From Armatimonadia bacterium (GTDB lineage Bacteria > Armatimonadota > Zipacnadia > Zipacnadales > UBA11051), in NCBI GenBank assembly GCA_039683575.1, contig JBDKRC010000243.1, positions 1 through 64,000 on the forward strand: a stretch of 64,000 nucleotides of DNA. Direction: 5' to 3'. The position numbers and the translations under genes were made by a program. The notes under the pieces are model-generated. The model saw nothing but the letters and a program-made list of their open reading frames with translations, did no database searches and was not told the DNA's origin. This document shows positions 58,307 to 64,000 of this stretch, piece after piece; within the stretch, counting starts at the first letter, position 1; each line of letters opens with the position of its first letter.

Positions 58307-59386
58307 ATGGATAAGGTCGGCGTCGGCTTCATTGGCTCAGGCTTCATCGCGGAGATCCACGCGGAGGCCTTCCGCTCCGTCCCACAGGCGCAAGTAGTTG
58401 CCGTAGCCTCGCCCCAAAATGCCGCCACCTTTGCGGCGAAACACTCCATCCCCAAACACTTCGCAGACTATCGCGACCTCCTCGCCCTCCCCGAGGTGGA
58501 CGTGGTCCTGCTCGGCCTGCCCAACGTCCTGCACGCCCAGGCCTGCTGCGACGCGGCAGCGGCCGGGAAGCACGTGATCTGCGAAAAGCCCCTGTGTGCC
58601 AGCCTGCAGGAGGCCGATCAGATGATCGCCGCCTGTCAAAAGGCAGGCGTGCACCTCATGTACGCCGAGGAACTCTGCTTCACCCCCAAGTACGTCCGCG
58701 CCAAGCAGGTCTGCGACGAGGGCGCGCTGGGTGACCTCTACATGATCAAGCAGTGCGAGAAGCACGACGGCCCGCACATGCCGTGGTTCTGGGATGTGGA
58801 GAAGTCCGGCGGCGGCGTCACCCTCGACATGGGCTGCCACGCCTTCGAGTACTTCCGCTGGATGCTCGGCAAGCAGAAGGCCGTGAGCGTCTACGCCGAC
58901 ATGGGCACCTTCGTCCACAAGGACAAGACCCGTGGTGACGACAACTCGATCATCATCGTCGAGTTCGAAAACGGCTGCCGTGGCGTCGCCGAGGAGAGTT
59001 GGGCGAAGCCGGGCGGTATGGACGACATCATCGAGCTATACGGTTCGGAGGGCGTGATCAAGTGCGACCTCCTCCGCGGCAGCGCCTTCGAGACCTACAG
59101 CAAGAAGGGCTACGGCTACGCAGTAGAAAAGGCCGGCAGCACGCAGGGCTGGAGTTTCACGATGTACGAGGAGATCTGGAACTACGGCTTCGTACACGAG
59201 GATCAGCACTTCATCAACTGCGTCCTCGGCCTGGAACAGCCGCTGGAGACGGGCGAGGACGGCAAAGCAGTGCTGGAGATCATCTTCGCAGCCTACGAAA
59301 GTGCAGGGACGGGGCGGAAGGTGGCGCTGCCGTTCATGCCACCAGAGGGCAAGCGGCCGATTGAGTTGTGGCTGGAGCGTGACTGA
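58307..59386 (+). CDS. Gfo/Idh/MocA family oxidoreductase
   Basis: GFIGSGFIA, HVICEKP, SGGGVTLDMGCH, AAYESA.TG. Confidence 0.93.
   Translation: MDKVGVGFIGSGFIAEIHAEAFRSVPQAQVVAVASPQNAATFAAKHSIPKHFADYRDLLALPEVDVVLLGLPNVLHAQACCDAAAAGKHVICEKPLCASLQEADQMIAACQKAGVHLMYAEELCFTPKYVRAKQVCDEGALGDLYMIKQCEKHDGPHMPWFWDVEKSGGGVTLDMGCHAFEYFRWMLGKQKAVSVYADMGTFVHKDKTRGDDNSIIIVEFENGCRGVAEESWAKPGGMDDIIELYGSEGVIKCDLLRGSAFETYSKKGYGYAVEKAGSTQGWSFTMYEEIWNYGFVHEDQHFINCVLGLEQPLETGEDGKAVLEIIFAAYESAGTGRKVALPFMPPEGKRPIELWLERD
59351..59373 (+). repeat. 23-bp direct repeat core, copy 1 (inside the oxidoreductase 3' end)
   Basis: AAGCGGCCGATTGAGTTGTGGCT, identical at 61153-61175 and 62117-62139. Confidence 0.95.
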
Positions 59387-59439
59387 CGGAGAGTACGGTT
59401 CCGGCGTGTGCCAACACTGCTTCGAGGGGAAGTGCGACG

Positions 59440-61011
59440 ATGTTTGATGTTGAACTCTGGATTAGGGATCATCAAGCTATATCGTTTCTGTTTGGGGGAT
59501 GTGGACTGGCGGCCGCAGGGGCTCTGCTGCGCCGGCTCCTCCGTCGGCGCGCCACTAACGCGCCAACTACGGCTGCAAGACAAGATTTCGTGAACGATAC
59601 CTCAGTGTCCACCGCACCAATCTCCACTGTCACTCAGAATCCAGAGACCCATATACAGAACACAATCAATGTGATGGCTCCAGACGCTGCCCCTGTGCCC
59701 GTGTCCCAAAATCCAAACGTACAGGATTTCAGCAGGAGCCACGAACCCAACGACTTATCTGGCGAGGCACAAGACACACGAATGCAGGCGCTGGATGCCT
59801 TGGGAGTAATAGCCCTATACCCAAACGTCACTGAACATGGCGGGCAGATGGCATCCGCCATTCGTGTTTCGAAAACCATCCACATCATCGCCTGCAGCGG
59901 GTATGGCTCGGTAACGGCCTACGATCAGGACCTCGAGAAGGCTCTGAGCGATGGCGCCCACATCACCGTCTTTCTGGCAAACCCACATGGCCCTGTGTGC
60001 GGTGGTTTGTATGATACCGAAGAAGACCTCACTCGCGACGATGCTGACAGAACGCGTCGCCGATATCTGACGCTGCGGACGAAGGCCAACGACAATACGC
60101 CCCGCGGGGTAGAACCAAGGTTCTGCATCGAATTAAGAGTATACCAGACGCTCGGCTTCTGCCTTGGAGGCATAATCTGCGATAGCCGCGGATGGTACAT
60201 GCCACGCATATTGCCTTTAGAACCACTGAATACCACCACGCTGGATATCGTTCCCGAGGGCATGCTCTGGCACCATCTGCAAGAGCACTTGCGATGGCTC
60301 AGGAAGCCAGCGGTGAGCTTCCCGTGTGCACTAGACGCGCCCATCCCTGTGGCAACTTTCGCCATGGAGAAGTGGGTGACGGTGACGCCGGAGAACGCGC
60401 ATCAGGCATTCCTGCCAGGTGATCTCATCCTGAGAAAGGAAGGAACGATGGCAGCCTGGGTCGATCTGCCATCTCCGAACGAACGTGCACAGGCAACTAA
60501 CAACAAGTTCCTCTGGGCCGCAACAAAGGTCTGTGGCGGTGACATCCTTGACGGAACGTGCCTGTACTACTCCCCGAAGACCGACGACAGGGGCACACCG
60601 AGATGGGTTAACTGCGCCGCTTCAGGCATGATAGAGCGTGTACTCCCTGTTCAGGATCCACCGGCATACACAAACCACAGAGTGACCGCAGACATTGGAT
60701 GCACGGATGGTCTATCCGCAGGACCACACCATTTTGCCGTTACGTGGACCCACAGGAGCAAACCCGCCATCTACCTATGGATAGACGGGCAATGTGTAGC
60801 TGAGGGATCGCTTGCCGCCGGCGGGGATTCAGTGTGGCCGCAGAGTACTGGCTCGCGGCTGTGCATCGGCCACTTCCCGACGATGGGAACATGGTTCTTC
60901 CTCAACTGGCCATTGACAGGATTCGCATTCTTCGACCAGGCCCTCAGCGAGGGCGAAATCGCTGCATGGAAGAAACATACTCTCTCAGTGGTGCGACACG
61001 ATCGGGACTAG
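59440..61011 (+). CDS. Hypothetical protein: N-terminal TM, DUF5919/PLD-fold-like domain, LamG/ConA-like domain
   Basis: IHIIACSG..LEKALSDGAHITVFLANP...IELRVY..IICD; HHFAVTW...LWIDGQ...LCIG...FFDQALSEGEI; visibly lower GC and atypical codons. Confidence 0.7.
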   Translation: MFDVELWIRDHQAISFLFGGCGLAAAGALLRRLLRRRATNAPTTAARQDFVNDTSVSTAPISTVTQNPETHIQNTINVMAPDAAPVPVSQNPNVQDFSRSHEPNDLSGEAQDTRMQALDALGVIALYPNVTEHGGQMASAIRVSKTIHIIACSGYGSVTAYDQDLEKALSDGAHITVFLANPHGPVCGGLYDTEEDLTRDDADRTRRRYLTLRTKANDNTPRGVEPRFCIELRVYQTLGFCLGGIICDSRGWYMPRILPLEPLNTTTLDIVPEGMLWHHLQEHLRWLRKPAVSFPCALDAPIPVATFAMEKWVTVTPENAHQAFLPGDLILRKEGTMAAWVDLPSPNERAQATNNKFLWAATKVCGGDILDGTCLYYSPKTDDRGTPRWVNCAASGMIERVLPVQDPPAYTNHRVTADIGCTDGLSAGPHHFAVTWTHRSKPAIYLWIDGQCVAEGSLAAGGDSVWPQSTGSRLCIGHFPTMGTWFFLNWPLTGFAFFDQALSEGEIAAWKKHTLSVVRHDRD

Positions 61012-61057
61012 CGAGCGCGCGTTGCCAGGGTCAGCAAAAGCCGACGGGGAATTGCAG

Positions 61058-61185
61058 GGAGCTCATCTTCGCAGCCCTCGAAAGTCGCTGGGACGGGGCG
61101 GAAGGTGGCGCTGCCGTTCACGCCGCCGCGCGCTCCGCAGGAGCGCATGGGCAAGCGGCCGATTGAGTTGTGGCTGAAAAGATAG
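61058..61185 (+). pseudogene. Degenerate duplicate of the 3' ~110 bp of the Gfo/Idh/MocA gene
   Basis: Aligns to 59275-59374 (GGGACGGGGCGGAAGGTGGCGCTGCCGTTCA identical), with a 1-nt frameshift and a small palindromic insert; ends GKRPIELWLKR*. Confidence 0.9.
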
Positions 61186-61221
61186 AGCATGCCAGACACC
61201 GCGGGGTGTTCAGCAGAGTGA

Positions 61222-62130
61222 TTGCGGGCTCCGGAGGTCAGGCCACTGTCGAGTGTACAGAAGACCCCAAGTAGGCTCAGAGCCCTGCAACACGCAGGTG
61301 CCCGCGTTGCCGTGCGCGGTCTCGTCGCCGTCGCCTTGTTGTTAGTCTATGAGTTGCTTTGGGGAAAGCTCTTCCCCTTCTCGCCGGTCGCATTGGGGTT
61401 CGAAAGACACGAACTCACCCACACCGTCGTCTTCGTACAGAGCGGAGCCGTCTTCAGAGACTTCAGCCAGGTTGACGGTCTGGTCCCGGAGGTGGAGCGC
61501 ACGCATGCGCTGGGATTTCTGTGCAAGCCTCGCCTGTTCGTCTTCCGGGATGGGGCGGCCTACCTTCGGCGATCTACTTCACGGGCTCGGTTTTGCGCCT
61601 TCCCCGGTGGAGCTTTAGTCATATCGCCCTGGGCTCAGCGCGAGGCCCGGGAAGGCAGGATTTCCCTGTCCATCTACCTGACACATGAGTTGTCCCATGT
61701 GTTGGTCTTTCAGCATGCGGGCTTCCTGCGGTCGCTTCGGCTCCCGAAATGGCTGTTAGAGGGGCTGGCCACCTACACAGCACATCAGATGGGCACATCC
61801 TTCTACCCCGACAAGCAGCGGACCTACCGGCTGCTGAGCGAGGGCAATTTCATGCCTCCTCTCCTATTCGATACCCATGCGGGGGACCAGATTGAGCTTC
61901 ACGTGAAGTACCCCCAGGCCTTCATATACTCTGAGTTTGCTTGTCTGGTGGACTACCTGATCCAGACTCGAGGGCGCGACAGGTTCCAGGGCTACTTGGG
62001 GCGCCTTACAGAGGGCGACGACCAAGCGGCAGCCTTCGAGGAAGCCTACGGGATAGCACTGGATCAGGCTGTTGGGGAATTCATGGATCAGGTCCGACAG
62101 CCTGCGAAACATGGGGAAGCGGCCGATTGA
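61222..62130 (+). CDS. Peptidase MA-like (HExxH...E) membrane-anchored protein; start uncertain
   Basis: THELSH...LPKWLLEGLATY; N-terminal TM; stop codon lies inside repeat copy 3. Confidence 0.75.
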   Translation: MRAPEVRPLSSVQKTPSRLRALQHAGARVAVRGLVAVALLLVYELLWGKLFPFSPVALGFERHELTHTVVFVQSGAVFRDFSQVDGLVPEVERTHALGFLCKPRLFVFRDGAAYLRRSTSRARFCAFPGGALVISPWAQREAREGRISLSIYLTHELSHVLVFQHAGFLRSLRLPKWLLEGLATYTAHQMGTSFYPDKQRTYRLLSEGNFMPPLLFDTHAGDQIELHVKYPQAFIYSEFACLVDYLIQTRGRDRFQGYLGRLTEGDDQAAAFEEAYGIALDQAVGEFMDQVRQPAKHGEAAD

Positions 62131-62149
62131 GTTGTGGCTCAGAGGCTAG
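62110..62149 (+). repeat. Third remnant of the oxidoreductase 3' end
   Basis: CATGGGGAAGCGGCCGATTGAGTTGTGGCTCAGAGGCTAG, read as MGKRPIELWLRG*. Confidence 0.9.
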
Positions 62150-62180: not shown

Positions 62181-64000
62181 ATGTCTCACCTCTGGCTGGA
62201 AGCGGAATCGTTCAATGAGCTTGGCGGCTGGGTTATTGACGAGCAGTCGATGGATCAGATGGGCTCAGCATATGTCATGGCCCACGGCATGGGGGTGCCG
62301 GTGCAGGACGCGGAGACCGTCTGCGTCGTGCCCGAGTCCGGCCAGTGGACCGTATGGGTCCGCACCCGCGACTGGACCGCGCCGTGGGGGCGCGGCACCT
62401 CTGGCGGAACCTTCAAGGTCAGGATCAACGGGACCCTCCTGCCGGAGACTCTGGGGACGAACGGGGCGGAGTGGGCCTGGCAGAAGGCGGGCGTCATCTC
62501 GCTGGAGCAGGGACCGGCCACAGTCGCCCTGCATGACCTGACCGGCTTCAACGGTCGCTGCGATGCCTTGTACCTGACCTCCGCCCCCGCTGACGTTCCG
62601 CCAAATGAACCCCGCGCGCTCAGTGAGTTCCGCAGGGCCGCGTCAGGAATCGTCTGCACGGACGACCCCGAAGTCTACGACCTGGCCGTGGCCGGCGGAG
62701 GGATTGCCGGGATCTGTACGGCCATTGCCGCCGCGCGCACCGGGGCCAAGGTTGTCCTGATCCACGACCGGCCGGTCATGGGCGGCTGCAACAGCTCGGA
62801 GATCCGCGTCCCCCTGGGCGGGCTCGTCCACGTGCCCCCCTATCCGCAGCTCGGGAACGTCGTCGAGGAGATCTCTCCCATCACAGGCAGACCGGGGGTC
62901 CTCCCGGCGGAGTTCTACGAGGACACCCGGAAGGCAAACGTCTTCCGCACCTTGCCCCCTGAGCAGTACCGGCTCATCCTCAATGCGAGGGTCGTGGCGG
63001 TGGAGAAAGACCCCGATGACCCGCAGAAAATCGCGGCCTTCGTGGCGCGGGACATCCGTACCGGGGCGGAGACACGCCTGCGGGCGCGGCTGTTTGCCGA
63101 CTGCACGGGCGACGCGGTCATCGCGCGCATGATGGGCGCCGAGGTCATGTACGGGCGCGAGCCCCGCGACAAGTTCGGCGAGTCTCTGGCCCCGGTCGAG
63201 GGCGACGACGAGGTCATGGGCATGTCGGTCATCTGGTGCTCGGACCAGGGCGAGGAGGTGACGTCCTTCCCCGACATTGACTGGGGGCTGGAGATCACCG
63301 AGGACAATGTCTACTACATCCGCAGCGGTGACTGGGAGTGGGAGACCGGCCAGTACCGCAATCAGGCCGATGAGACCGAGTACATCCGCGACTACGGGCT
63401 GATGGCCATTTTCGCGAACTGGTCCTACCTGAAGAACCACTCGGAACGCCAGGCGGAGTGGGCGCGGGACCGGCTCGCCTGGATCACACCCCTCGGCGGG
63501 AAGCGGGAGAGTTACCGTGTGGTCGGCGACTACATCATGACACAAAGCGATATCGAGGGCGAAACGGTCCAGCCGGACGCGACCGCCTCGATGACGTGGA
63601 GCATTGACCTGCACTTCCCCGATCCGGAGCACCTTGCCAAGTTCAAAGAGCCCTTCCGCTCCTGCGCCTACCACCGCAATCTCATGAAGCCCTACCCGGT
63701 ACCGTACCGTTGCCTCTACTCGAAGGACGTGACCAACCTGTTTCTGGGCGGGCGCATCATCAGCGCCTCCCACGTGGCGTTCGGGTCGGTACGGGTCATG
63801 CGCACGCTGGGGATTCTGGGCGAGGTAATCGGCATGGCCGCGACGATCTGCGCCAGGGAGGGCCTTTCCCCCCGGGACGTCTACCTGTCGCGGCTTGATG
63901 AACTCAAGAAGATGATGGAGCAGGGCGTGCCGCCCCCCGCGACGTACCATCCCGGAGGGACCGGCAGGAAGTACGAGGGGTATCACTTCGCGGAGATTGG
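62181..64000 (+). CDS. FAD-dependent oxidoreductase (FAD_oxidored/xanthan-lyase-associated type), partial, runs off window
   Basis: Absent from the ORF track because no stop is in the window. Reads MSHLWLEAESF..GGWVID...YDLAVAGGGIAGICTAIAAARTG..LIHDRPVMGGCNSSEIRV...DCTGD...KRESYR...PYRCLYSKDVTNLFLGGR...RVMRT. Confidence 0.9.
   Translation, partial: MSHLWLEAESFNELGGWVIDEQSMDQMGSAYVMAHGMGVPVQDAETVCVVPESGQWTVWVRTRDWTAPWGRGTSGGTFKVRINGTLLPETLGTNGAEWAWQKAGVISLEQGPATVALHDLTGFNGRCDALYLTSAPADVPPNEPRALSEFRRAASGIVCTDDPEVYDLAVAGGGIAGICTAIAAARTGAKVVLIHDRPVMGGCNSSEIRVPLGGLVHVPPYPQLGNVVEEISPITGRPGVLPAEFYEDTRKANVFRTLPPEQYRLILNARVVAVEKDPDDPQKIAAFVARDIRTGAETRLRARLFADCTGDAVIARMMGAEVMYGREPRDKFGESLAPVEGDDEVMGMSVIWCSDQGEEVTSFPDIDWGLEITEDNVYYIRSGDWEWETGQYRNQADETEYIRDYGLMAIFANWSYLKNHSERQAEWARDRLAWITPLGGKRESYRVVGDYIMTQSDIEGETVQPDATASMTWSIDLHFPDPEHLAKFKEPFRSCAYHRNLMKPYPVPYRCLYSKDVTNLFLGGRIISASHVAFGSVRVMRTLGILGEVIGMAATICAREGLSPRDVYLSRLDELKKMMEQGVPPPATYHPGGTGRKYEGYHFAEI

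Follow-up and report, generated by a model that had tools for sequence, protein, structure and literature searches.

Cis-mobilisable elements are known from the 3' end of fda in Streptococcus thermophilus. Displacement of the end of a gene by incoming DNA (tail displacement) is already known from polymorphic-toxin loci and the mitochondria of fungi, as are long target duplications from the surroundings of restriction-modification genes. For the arrays of rhs loci and of the type VI secretion system (T6SS), displacement by homology-facilitated illegitimate recombination (HFIR) has been proposed (Kirchberger et al. 2017, PMC5361080; Jackson et al. 2009, cited there). Mobile open reading frames (mORFs) that carry a C-terminus with them have been described at atp6, atp9, cox2 and nad3 of Glomus (Beaudet et al. 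2013, PMC3630166, where Allomyces atp6 is also cited). Insertion with long target duplication is reported by Furuta et al. 2010 (PMC2853133; Nobusato et al. 2000, cited there) as an unexplained class, mostly from naturally competent species, and some of the repeats in that account overlap gene 3' ends. Tycheposon islands are presented as stacked integrative elements with partial copies of their target (Hackl et al., 10.1101/2020.12.28.424599). Finally, about half of the hotspots of gene flux studied by Oliveira et al. 2017 (PMC5635113) have no recognisable mobile element, and the first entry of new genes into such hotspots is posed there as an open question. Here we analyze a 64,000-nucleotide stretch of DNA (the window), the first 64 kb of the 85.6-kb contig C243 in a metagenome bin of an uncultured Armatimonadia bacterium (352 contigs, 6,231,525 bases or 6.23 Mb). 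The stretch behind one of its genes, which encodes an ordinary oxidoreductase of the Gfo/Idh/MocA family, is best explained as an insertion hotspot for accessory genes, where displaced copies of the end of that gene (tails) alternate with unrelated cargo.

The oxidoreductase gene (the anchor gene; 58307..59386, plus strand) is intact and encodes 359 amino acids that match the Pfam models GFO_IDH_MocA, _C and _C3. No substrate is assigned to the enzyme, because its NCBIfam matches (e.g., inositol 2-dehydrogenase) lie far under the cut-offs. A 23-mer core, AAGCGGCCGATTGAGTTGTGGCT, has three exact plus-strand matches in the window, at 59351, 61153 and 62117; allowing up to 3 mismatches yields no extra match there, and none occurred in 100 shuffles. 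Elsewhere in the 6,231,525-base assembly no further copy was found, either with the 23-mer (the reversed-pattern control gave 0) or with blastn-short using the three core regions. A dispersed repeat, considered at the outset, was ruled out by this confinement to one locus, even though the genome is rich in other short repeats.

Each copy of the core sits in an alternative C-terminus with a nearby stop of its own. The first belongs to the functional 3' end, where the final ~128 nucleotides of the anchor gene (59259-59386) constitute tail copy 1; its core (59351..59373, plus strand, exact match) encodes KRPIELW(L), and the translation ends in ...GKRPIELWLERD and a stop. Tail copy 2 (61044..61186, plus strand) repeats the oxidoreductase 3' end as a 5'-truncated pseudogene and was recognized by alignment and translation as well as by tblastn with the protein of the anchor gene itself. 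It ends in ...GKRPIELWLKR before its own stop and carries an exact core at 61153..61175 (plus strand). Its left edge lies at 61044 or 61058, ~95-110 bp further upstream, so that it copies the last ~110-128 nucleotides of the gene, and it aligns to 59275-59374 with 78% identity over 119 columns. Two insertions interrupt it, one of 1 nucleotide at 61086 and an 18-bp quasi-palindrome at 61129-61146. The latter has the arms GCGCTCC and GGAGCGC and the appearance of a templated hairpin insertion, here in a pseudogene. Tail copy 3 (62110..62149, plus strand, identified by match and translation) is a 40-nucleotide remnant, MGKRPIELWLRG with its stop, that holds the third core (62117-62139) and ends 31 nucleotides before the next gene, which encodes a FAD_oxidored-family protein. 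The differences flanking the core (ggc/ggg and ctg/ctc) are synonymous, and the three tails differ by 1-3 residues after ELWL.

Exactly one gene lies between successive copies, cargo 1 at 59440..61011 and cargo 2 at 61312..62130 (both on the plus strand; the longest open reading frame (ORF) of the second begins at TTG 61222). The last 6-7 codons and the stop of cargo 2 fall in tail copy 3, and its TGA (62128-62130) lies inside the third core. This layout had been put forward in an earlier note made from the same letters (the original prediction), from the three cores with their alternative ends and synonymous flanking differences to the longer (~95 bp), decaying second copy and the cargo stop in the core, and it agrees in all these points with our matches, alignments and translations; that the core is not scattered through the genome accords with it as well. 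Both cargoes are compositionally foreign, with a G+C content at third codon positions (GC3) of 0.616 and 0.707 against 0.858 in the anchor gene and 0.861 in the flanking gene downstream; across the genome, GC3 has a median of 0.806 and a 5th percentile of 0.70, and cargo 1 falls below the latter.

The arrangement recurs on independent contigs. In what follows, G000 denotes this genome, G001, G002 and so on its relatives in the order, L035 a metagenome contig and X1-X4 public sequencing runs. L035, of 1194 bp, contains the exact core and reads, in order, an oxidoreductase end, a different ORF of 227 amino acids, an intact displaced tail and the start of a cargo 2 homologue. Its oxidoreductase end is 94% identical to that of G000 and closes with ...GKRPIELWLK and a stop, with 1 mismatch in the core; the exact core is that of its displaced tail, LEIIFAAYESAGTGRKMALPFMPPEGKRPIELWLRR followed by a stop. 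Among public runs, the best contains 0.14 of the sampled locus words, and contigs of four runs from four studies were aligned to the locus at 85% likeness. All four include contigs that span cargo 2, copy 3 and the FAD_oxidored-family gene. A contig of X3 spans cargo 1, copy 2 and cargo 2, the L035-type junction is present in X2, and a 4425-letter contig of X4 runs from the gene through 1077 other letters to a tail that corresponds to the gene from 59188 or earlier, and on into cargo 2. Because the X4 contig aligns ungapped across 61129-61146, it probably carries the same 18-bp insertion. Slot 1 thus holds cargo 1 in G000 and X3, the 227-amino-acid ORF in L035 and X2, and the 1077 other letters in X4; taken together, the junctions in L035 and X1-X4 indicate that slot 2 is common to the relatives and that slot 1 has at least three different inserts. 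In G002, of the same genus, the orthologue of the FAD_oxidored-family gene stands 830 bp behind the oxidoreductase orthologue, and this gap is filled by an ORF of 147/183 amino acids with no tail copy.

Contents thus vary between close relatives, and the serial acquisition claimed in the original prediction stands. Its further claim that genes came singly holds in the window and fails in the relatives, which have up to three ORFs per slot. Copy 2 starts at the same codon (DGK) in G000 and L035 with different cargo upstream, a pattern that would fit cassette exchange via flanking homology. In the last 45 nucleotides before the tail, the displaced copy of L035 has 0 differences from the functional copy of G000, and the functional copy of L035 itself has 5; the comparison suggests that the displaced copy of L035 is the native allele.

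Of the 67 genomes of the order, 22 have an orthologue of the anchor gene (E <= 1e-120), and 21 loci were examined, G017 being left out since a contig end cuts the gene end. Displaced tails are present at six of the 21 (G000, G034, G038, G021, G031 and G044), which is a lower bound because the downstream sequence is shorter than 1.5 kb at several of the remaining loci. Weak secondary matches in G002, G019 and G032 (29-47 nucleotides, 77-85%) were not counted as tails. Measured from the end of the stop codon, the left edges of the tails lie at -205 in G021, -202 in G031 (same genus as G000), -189/-160 in G034, -128 and -39 in copies 2 and 3 of G000, -84 in G038 and -31 in G044. The cargo of the tail-bearing relatives comprises a PIN toxin with a glycosidase-like gene, SIR2_2, Schlafen/AlbA_2, and a DUF433 plus DUF5615 pair. 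A MazE plus PIN pair stands directly behind the gene in G041 and has no detectable tail.

Several of these relatives show peculiarities of their own. In G034 (L012, 1328-2556), the gene tail and the DUF433/DUF5615 toxin-antitoxin pair recur with a period of 891 bp, at 99% identity, as far as the contig end, and 30 bp are deleted from the interior of the second tail; the repeat is either an amplification of the unit via the tails or an assembly collapse. In G021 (L031, 3591-5204) the oxidoreductase frame lacks the usual stop and extends to 537 amino acids, and the usual tail is found 1.6 kb downstream, behind a SIR2_2-like gene. One ORF of G049 matches Y1_Tnp (IS200-like; L116, 2130-2747); it stands directly behind the orthologue and is bracketed by a 24-nucleotide perfect inverted repeat.

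Beyond the order, a wider collection was searched with the own tail of each locus as the DNA query. Its 78 usable loci, mostly from Chloroflexota and Planctomycetota, yielded only two Armatimonadia contigs that had already been counted. An earlier pass over this collection at the protein level was less sensitive and missed G038. A 24-nucleotide tail match in a Planctomycetota contig was taken as chance. Two matches of a core 19-mer to viral contigs, considered as traces of a viral vector or attP, were likewise rejected as chance, because the same AT-rich sequence was matched both times, without oxidoreductase homology.

The layout is found at other genes of the same genome. A self-comparison returned 57 low-copy local direct repeats (35-400 bp, spaced 150-6000 bp), and at six loci an intact gene has its stop no more than ~12 nucleotides from the end of one copy of the repeat, with the second copy downstream, either outside called genes or over a small spurious or partial ORF. 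These are the anchor locus and loci on contigs C26, C39, C293, C27 and C126, with repeats of 40-297 bp. On C26, a tail copy of 130 bp (87% identity) that includes the stop position lies behind thrS, the gene for threonyl-tRNA synthetase, and the layout therefore occurs at an essential gene too; the segment 18216-21594 (L134, 1216-4594) reads thrS, two low-GC3 orphan ORFs of 243 and 154 amino acids, and the copy of the 3' end. For an ORF of this locus, the Atlas returned an unnamed widespread cluster. On C39 (25160-28191; L135), two TIR-domain ORFs (TIR plus DUF5679), an unknown ORF and a copy of the gene end (115-129 bp, 81%) stand in this order behind an Eco57I-like methylase/restriction gene. 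On C293 (13065-14954; L136), two membrane-protein ORFs lie downstream of an AP_endonuc_2 gene, with the displaced tail (136 bp, 90%) between them; it is in frame, and the two tails differ (KVKSLVEG versus KVKGKV, each before a stop). The AP_endonuc_2 site, whose far flank is a HIT-like gene (named from its N-terminal sequence), is empty in three of four relatives (G001, G002 and G003), with gaps of 105-176 nucleotides versus 1778 in G000. A DUF2961 gene on C27 has two tail copies behind it, one of 297 bp (95%) and one of 82 bp (90%), and an unnamed gene on C126 has one (86 bp, 95%). Weaker candidates are present on C43, C18, C198 and C320, and one clear mirror case, in which a displaced 5' end lies upstream of its gene, was found on C81.

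The homology runs out at the stop or within ~12 nucleotides of it at each of the six loci aligned, the distance being 12 nucleotides before the stop at two. The repeat pairs are homeologous over their full length (78-95% identical) and do not consist of an identical core between unrelated arms, and the repeats of different loci are mutually unrelated in sequence. When more copies were allowed, four copies of ~226 nucleotides (67-87% identical) were seen across 14.9 kb on C235 (50174-65045). GC-rich interspersed repeats of the hairpin type, with motifs such as GGGCCTTGCGGCCCTGG and CCCGAAGGGGCGACAGCC, occur on C49, C51, C93, C288 and other contigs and are unrelated to the core.

The core spans the codons of a conserved C-terminal motif of the orthologue group, (K/R)P(I/F)(E/D)LW, which reads KRPIELW here and PIDLW, PFELW or PQEVW in other orthologues. 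It is the overlap of three homology blocks of unequal length over the most conserved codons. It is not read as a dedicated att site because it is inexact in the functional copy of L035 (1 base off) and because a clean run of 28 nucleotides is unremarkable: copies 1 and 2 share such an identical run, copy 2 is otherwise ~92% identical in its ungapped parts, and we estimate the chance of the run at ~0.1 for 8% divergence. The core could instead be a place of homologous crossover. Just upstream of it, one allele type, TTCATGCCACCAGAGGGC, is shared by the functional copy of G000 and the displaced copy of L035, and the other, TTCACGCC..., by the displaced copy of G000, the functional copy of L035 and G002.

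The reading that we prefer for this recurrent anatomy, with its variable cargo, variable tail lengths and lack of recombinase genes in or near the units, is serial insertion anchored by homology, with displacement of the tail, through general recombination. We put its probability at roughly 0.55; the order of events, the identity of the functional tail as the incoming one and the recombination pathway are what we infer. Each acquisition would have brought with it a slightly divergent (homeologous) version of the last codons of the gene, to which it was joined. Recombination in the conserved 3' part would have left the gene complete, ending from then on in the tail and stop that came in, and would have set the cargo directly after that stop, the resident tail being shifted downstream as a 5'-truncated fragment. 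Two such rounds would give the observed order of gene, cargo 1, tail 2, cargo 2, tail 3 and FAD oxidoreductase, with the oldest event farthest from the gene. The entry itself may have combined a RecA-type crossover in the gene with an illegitimate second join, as in HFIR, or may have been the single-crossover entry of a circle of tail and cargo; in either case general recombination would do the enzymatic work, with no dedicated site-specific recombinase. Later swaps could use the gene and the tails as homology arms, as in the hotspot model outlined by Oliveira et al. (PMC5635113), and slot 1 would therefore be swappable between strains. Homologues of ComEC and DprA score over the cut-off in this genome, as they do in 10-11 of 14 control genomes, and may be taken as a weak hint of a DNA-uptake route.

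A bolder extension of serial insertion, which we regard as speculative, is that the units of replacement tail and cargo form an active, integrase-free gene-capture system. Recombination between two tails would release them from an array as circles, which would pass between Armatimonadia strains and could enter any genome through a single RecA crossover in the conserved end of the corresponding housekeeping gene. The gene end would then act as a portable attachment site, and the block of ~23-28 nucleotides as the minimal crossover stretch. If true, this would provide a concrete mechanism, with a readable scar, for gene-flux hotspots without mobile elements.

The final anatomy alone does not separate remnants of integrase-driven elements, mORFs and in-situ duplication, and each was weighed against the remaining evidence. 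The units might be what is left of site-specific integrative elements, with tails of the attL/attR type and a tyrosine or serine recombinase that has since been deleted or acts in trans. The restored gene, the displaced old end and the position of the newer units near the gene are as expected for such elements, tycheposon islands are described with stacked units and scattered partial tRNAs (10.1101/2020.12.28.424599), the block of 23-28 nucleotides is identical across the three copies, and the six 3'-type loci against one mirror-type locus amount to a 3' bias. A recombinase in trans, which the original prediction had raised, has candidates in the 12 matches to the tyrosine-recombinase family PF00589 elsewhere in the genome; none of these is on C243, however, and among the called genes at 38.7-74.6 kb of this contig there is no match to a recombinase or transposase family, in keeping with the claim that no recombinase gene is nearby. 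The cargo at the anchor orthologues (G000, L035 and 19 order loci; 39 ORFs in one pass) likewise has no match to a recombinase family, the ORFs within 4 kb downstream in the relatives none to an integrase, resolvase or homing-endonuclease family, and the cargo at the five other tail loci of the genome none to a mobility or recombinase family. Each locus has its own unrelated repeat, and therefore one trans-acting enzyme cannot serve all of them. No inverted repeats that bound the units were found in the repeat search. The left edges vary by event from -205 to -31, and this spread, the mismatch in the functional core of L035 and the unrelated repeats at other genes also leave the comparison of the core with a regenerated att site, drawn in the original prediction, unsupported. 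An origin in integrative elements is thus possible but unlikely.

A selfish nuclease of the homing-endonuclease type could equally have cut the tail-less allele and been copied in with a recoded replacement tail, as in mORFs with a carried C-terminus, and since have decayed or been replaced by passengers. The architecture of core, inserted C-terminus, ORF and native C-terminus is identical to that of the mitochondrial cases described in PMC3630166, and divergence between the two tails would be expected. We nevertheless find this origin improbable, since Pfam and PHROGs searches, at family level only, detected no LAGLIDADG, GIY-YIG, HNH or other nuclease among first-slot ORFs here or in the relatives. 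Most proteins encoded in the first slot are membrane-anchored orphans of small size or are of the TIR, toxin-antitoxin or FMN-reductase kind, and left edges differ between events at one gene. About as doubtful is an in-situ origin, in which a staggered or replicative break duplicates 40-300 bp of the target and the copies diverge, the downstream one as a pseudogene. Such insertions form a described class, with repeats of more than 30 bp and variable length and no mobility genes in the examples of PMC2853133; the ~10% divergence between the copies of L035 is like the ~9% between the genes of G000 and L035, and the repeat of G034 is 99% identical and continues past the stop. A random stagger would not, however, make the homology stop at or just before the stop codon in six of six aligned loci. 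The tails moreover diverge sharply after the last conserved codon, each with a nearby stop, the displaced copy of L035 is nearer to the functional allele of G000 than its functional copy is (0 versus 5 differences, as above), and the published cases presented in PMC2853133 have near-identical repeats. That strain variants were co-assembled and chained through a short repeat is hardly credible. The bin does consist of 352 contigs and the G034 example lies at a contig end, but L035 and the contigs of the four runs, including the 4425-letter contig of X4, reproduce the junctions, and the repeat measures only 23-28 nucleotides between unique flanks; the array is accordingly no product of assembly.

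Some observations weigh against serial insertion by general recombination. An element integrated by a tyrosine recombinase and equipped with a replacement tail would leave the same anatomy, and 12 such recombinase genes lie elsewhere in the genome. The divergence levels alone are compatible with a long target duplication in situ followed by divergence. Both the 28-nucleotide identity of copies 1 and 2 and the left edge that copy 2 of G000 has in common with that of L035 would be in keeping with a specific site. Between -189 and -205 lie three of the left edges, and X4 adds one at or beyond -198, which could hint at a preferred site; by a rough estimate, this clustering is not beyond chance. 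At the AP_endonuc_2 locus, a three-way comparison places both copies at ~75% identity to four relatives, so that the native copy is not indicated. Finally, the genomes compared are metagenome bins throughout, and gene calls outside the window come from our own rough caller.

The cargo genes of the window have few relatives. Cargo 1 (GC 0.566) encodes a near-orphan of 523 amino acids with an N-terminal hydrophobic segment and a weak Laminin_G_3/concanavalin-like C-terminus. Its only Pfam match, Laminin_G_3 (E 0.007), is under the cut-off, no family of PADLOC, NCBIfam or PHROGs was matched, and a search of 66 order relatives found no homologue. From a collection of 5.8 billion clusters, a word-limited search with 8000 candidates scored retrieved one homologue (42% identity, E <= 0.001). 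The Atlas gave sub-threshold leads only, to a Laminin_G_3-like end and to a middle part near DUF5919/TIR-associated models, with TM 0.3-0.4 by query. Cargo 2 encodes an HExxH protein that resembles Peptidase_MA_2 (Pfam E 2.5e-6, under the cut-off) and has a hydrophobic segment at its N-terminus; GTG 61312 is its likelier start, judging from the start positions of its homologues. These homologues (52-59% identity) occur in four relatives, on contigs apart from their oxidoreductase gene. On contig C114 of G002 (L125), the cargo 2 homologue lies 87 nucleotides upstream of another ORF, whose N-terminus, MSKLGVGFIGCGG..., resembles by eye the dinucleotide-binding motif of Gfo/Idh/MocA proteins. Neither cargo of the window matched a PADLOC or toxin family.

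The FAD_oxidored-family gene (62181..64000, plus strand; Pfam FAD_oxidored, E 2e-65) is the resident downstream neighbour and continues past the window. Upstream of the anchor gene, the segment 56320-58241 contains a second, divergent Gfo/Idh/MocA gene on the minus strand and encodes a two-domain protein of the glyoxalase/bleomycin-resistance fold, the halves of which appear as internal repeats. Between 57000 and 64000, no Rfam match was obtained at E <= 0.1, and a promoter/terminator consensus scan, not tuned to the host phylum, gave no intergenic site and counts at the level of shuffled sequence.

Displaced tails would constitute a readable scar, recording the order of acquisition, the neighbouring gene that served as the anchor and the one-sided homology of the incoming DNA. 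This scar lies at ordinary and even essential genes (oxidoreductase, thrS) and not at toxin loci, it is present at several loci of one genome and across the order, and among the cargo are genes typical of defence and addiction (TIR, SIR2-like, Schlafen/AlbA_2, PIN toxin-antitoxin). If the phenomenon proves general, scans for tails would allow acquisitions in uncultured lineages to be dated and put in order with no need of reference strains, and such loci would offer a test bed for integrase-free cassette exchange.

Comparison with the systems described above reveals likenesses and differences in each case. As in rhs, contact-dependent growth inhibition (CDI) or T6SS arrays, new 3' ends come with downstream genes and displaced ends are stacked behind an intact gene, with no integrase; the rhs/CDI-style analogy drawn in the original prediction, in which an older 3' end is displaced downstream at an ordinary metabolic gene, therefore fits the anatomy. 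For rhs and T6SS arrays, PMC5361080 proposes a one-sided, HFIR-like event and later movement by ordinary homologous recombination. In the arrays treated there, however, what is displaced is a functional toxin domain and what is retained is its immunity gene, with a clear selective logic, whereas here the tails differ by 1-3 codons, the anchors are ordinary enzymes (including thrS) and the cargo is unrelated. The fungal mORFs, as described in PMC3630166, share the order of core, foreign tail, ORF and native tail, the functional gene and the diverged tails; by contrast, the stacked units here, with their diverse cargo, lie on a bacterial chromosome, and no endonuclease was found in their slots. 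Long target duplications resemble this locus in that a small insert free of mobility genes lies between long direct repeats, which vary in length and in some cases overlap gene 3' ends. The class as presented in PMC2853133 consists of restriction-modification genes between near-identical repeats, whereas the repeats here are 78-95% identical, end at the stop and bear alternative tails, and most of the cargo is not of the restriction-modification type.

In tycheposon-like islands (10.1101/2020.12.28.424599), newcomers push older units inward, partial target copies lie between the units and some units have no integrase, much as here. The defining features of tycheposons and cis-mobilisable systems are nevertheless a fixed att core and a site-specific recombinase, and this locus showed neither. 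Integrons differ as well: C243 has no PF00589 match, its 38.7-74.6 kb segment no recombinase family, and the boundaries here are direct repeats of a coding 3' end with no bracketing inverted repeat, as judged by repeat search. With the hotspots of PMC5635113 the locus shares a variable slot between conserved genes and the lack of mobility proteins. The model outlined in that paper, a double crossover in both flanks, is scarless, whereas the tails here would be the scars of events with homology on one side. A few word-based literature searches, with subscription journals outside their scope, returned no paper on tail displacement at ordinary bacterial genes. What differs from these systems is the combination of ordinary or essential anchors, stacked units, recurrence within one genome and across its order, and a cargo of defence, addiction and orphan genes that comes without a dedicated enzyme.

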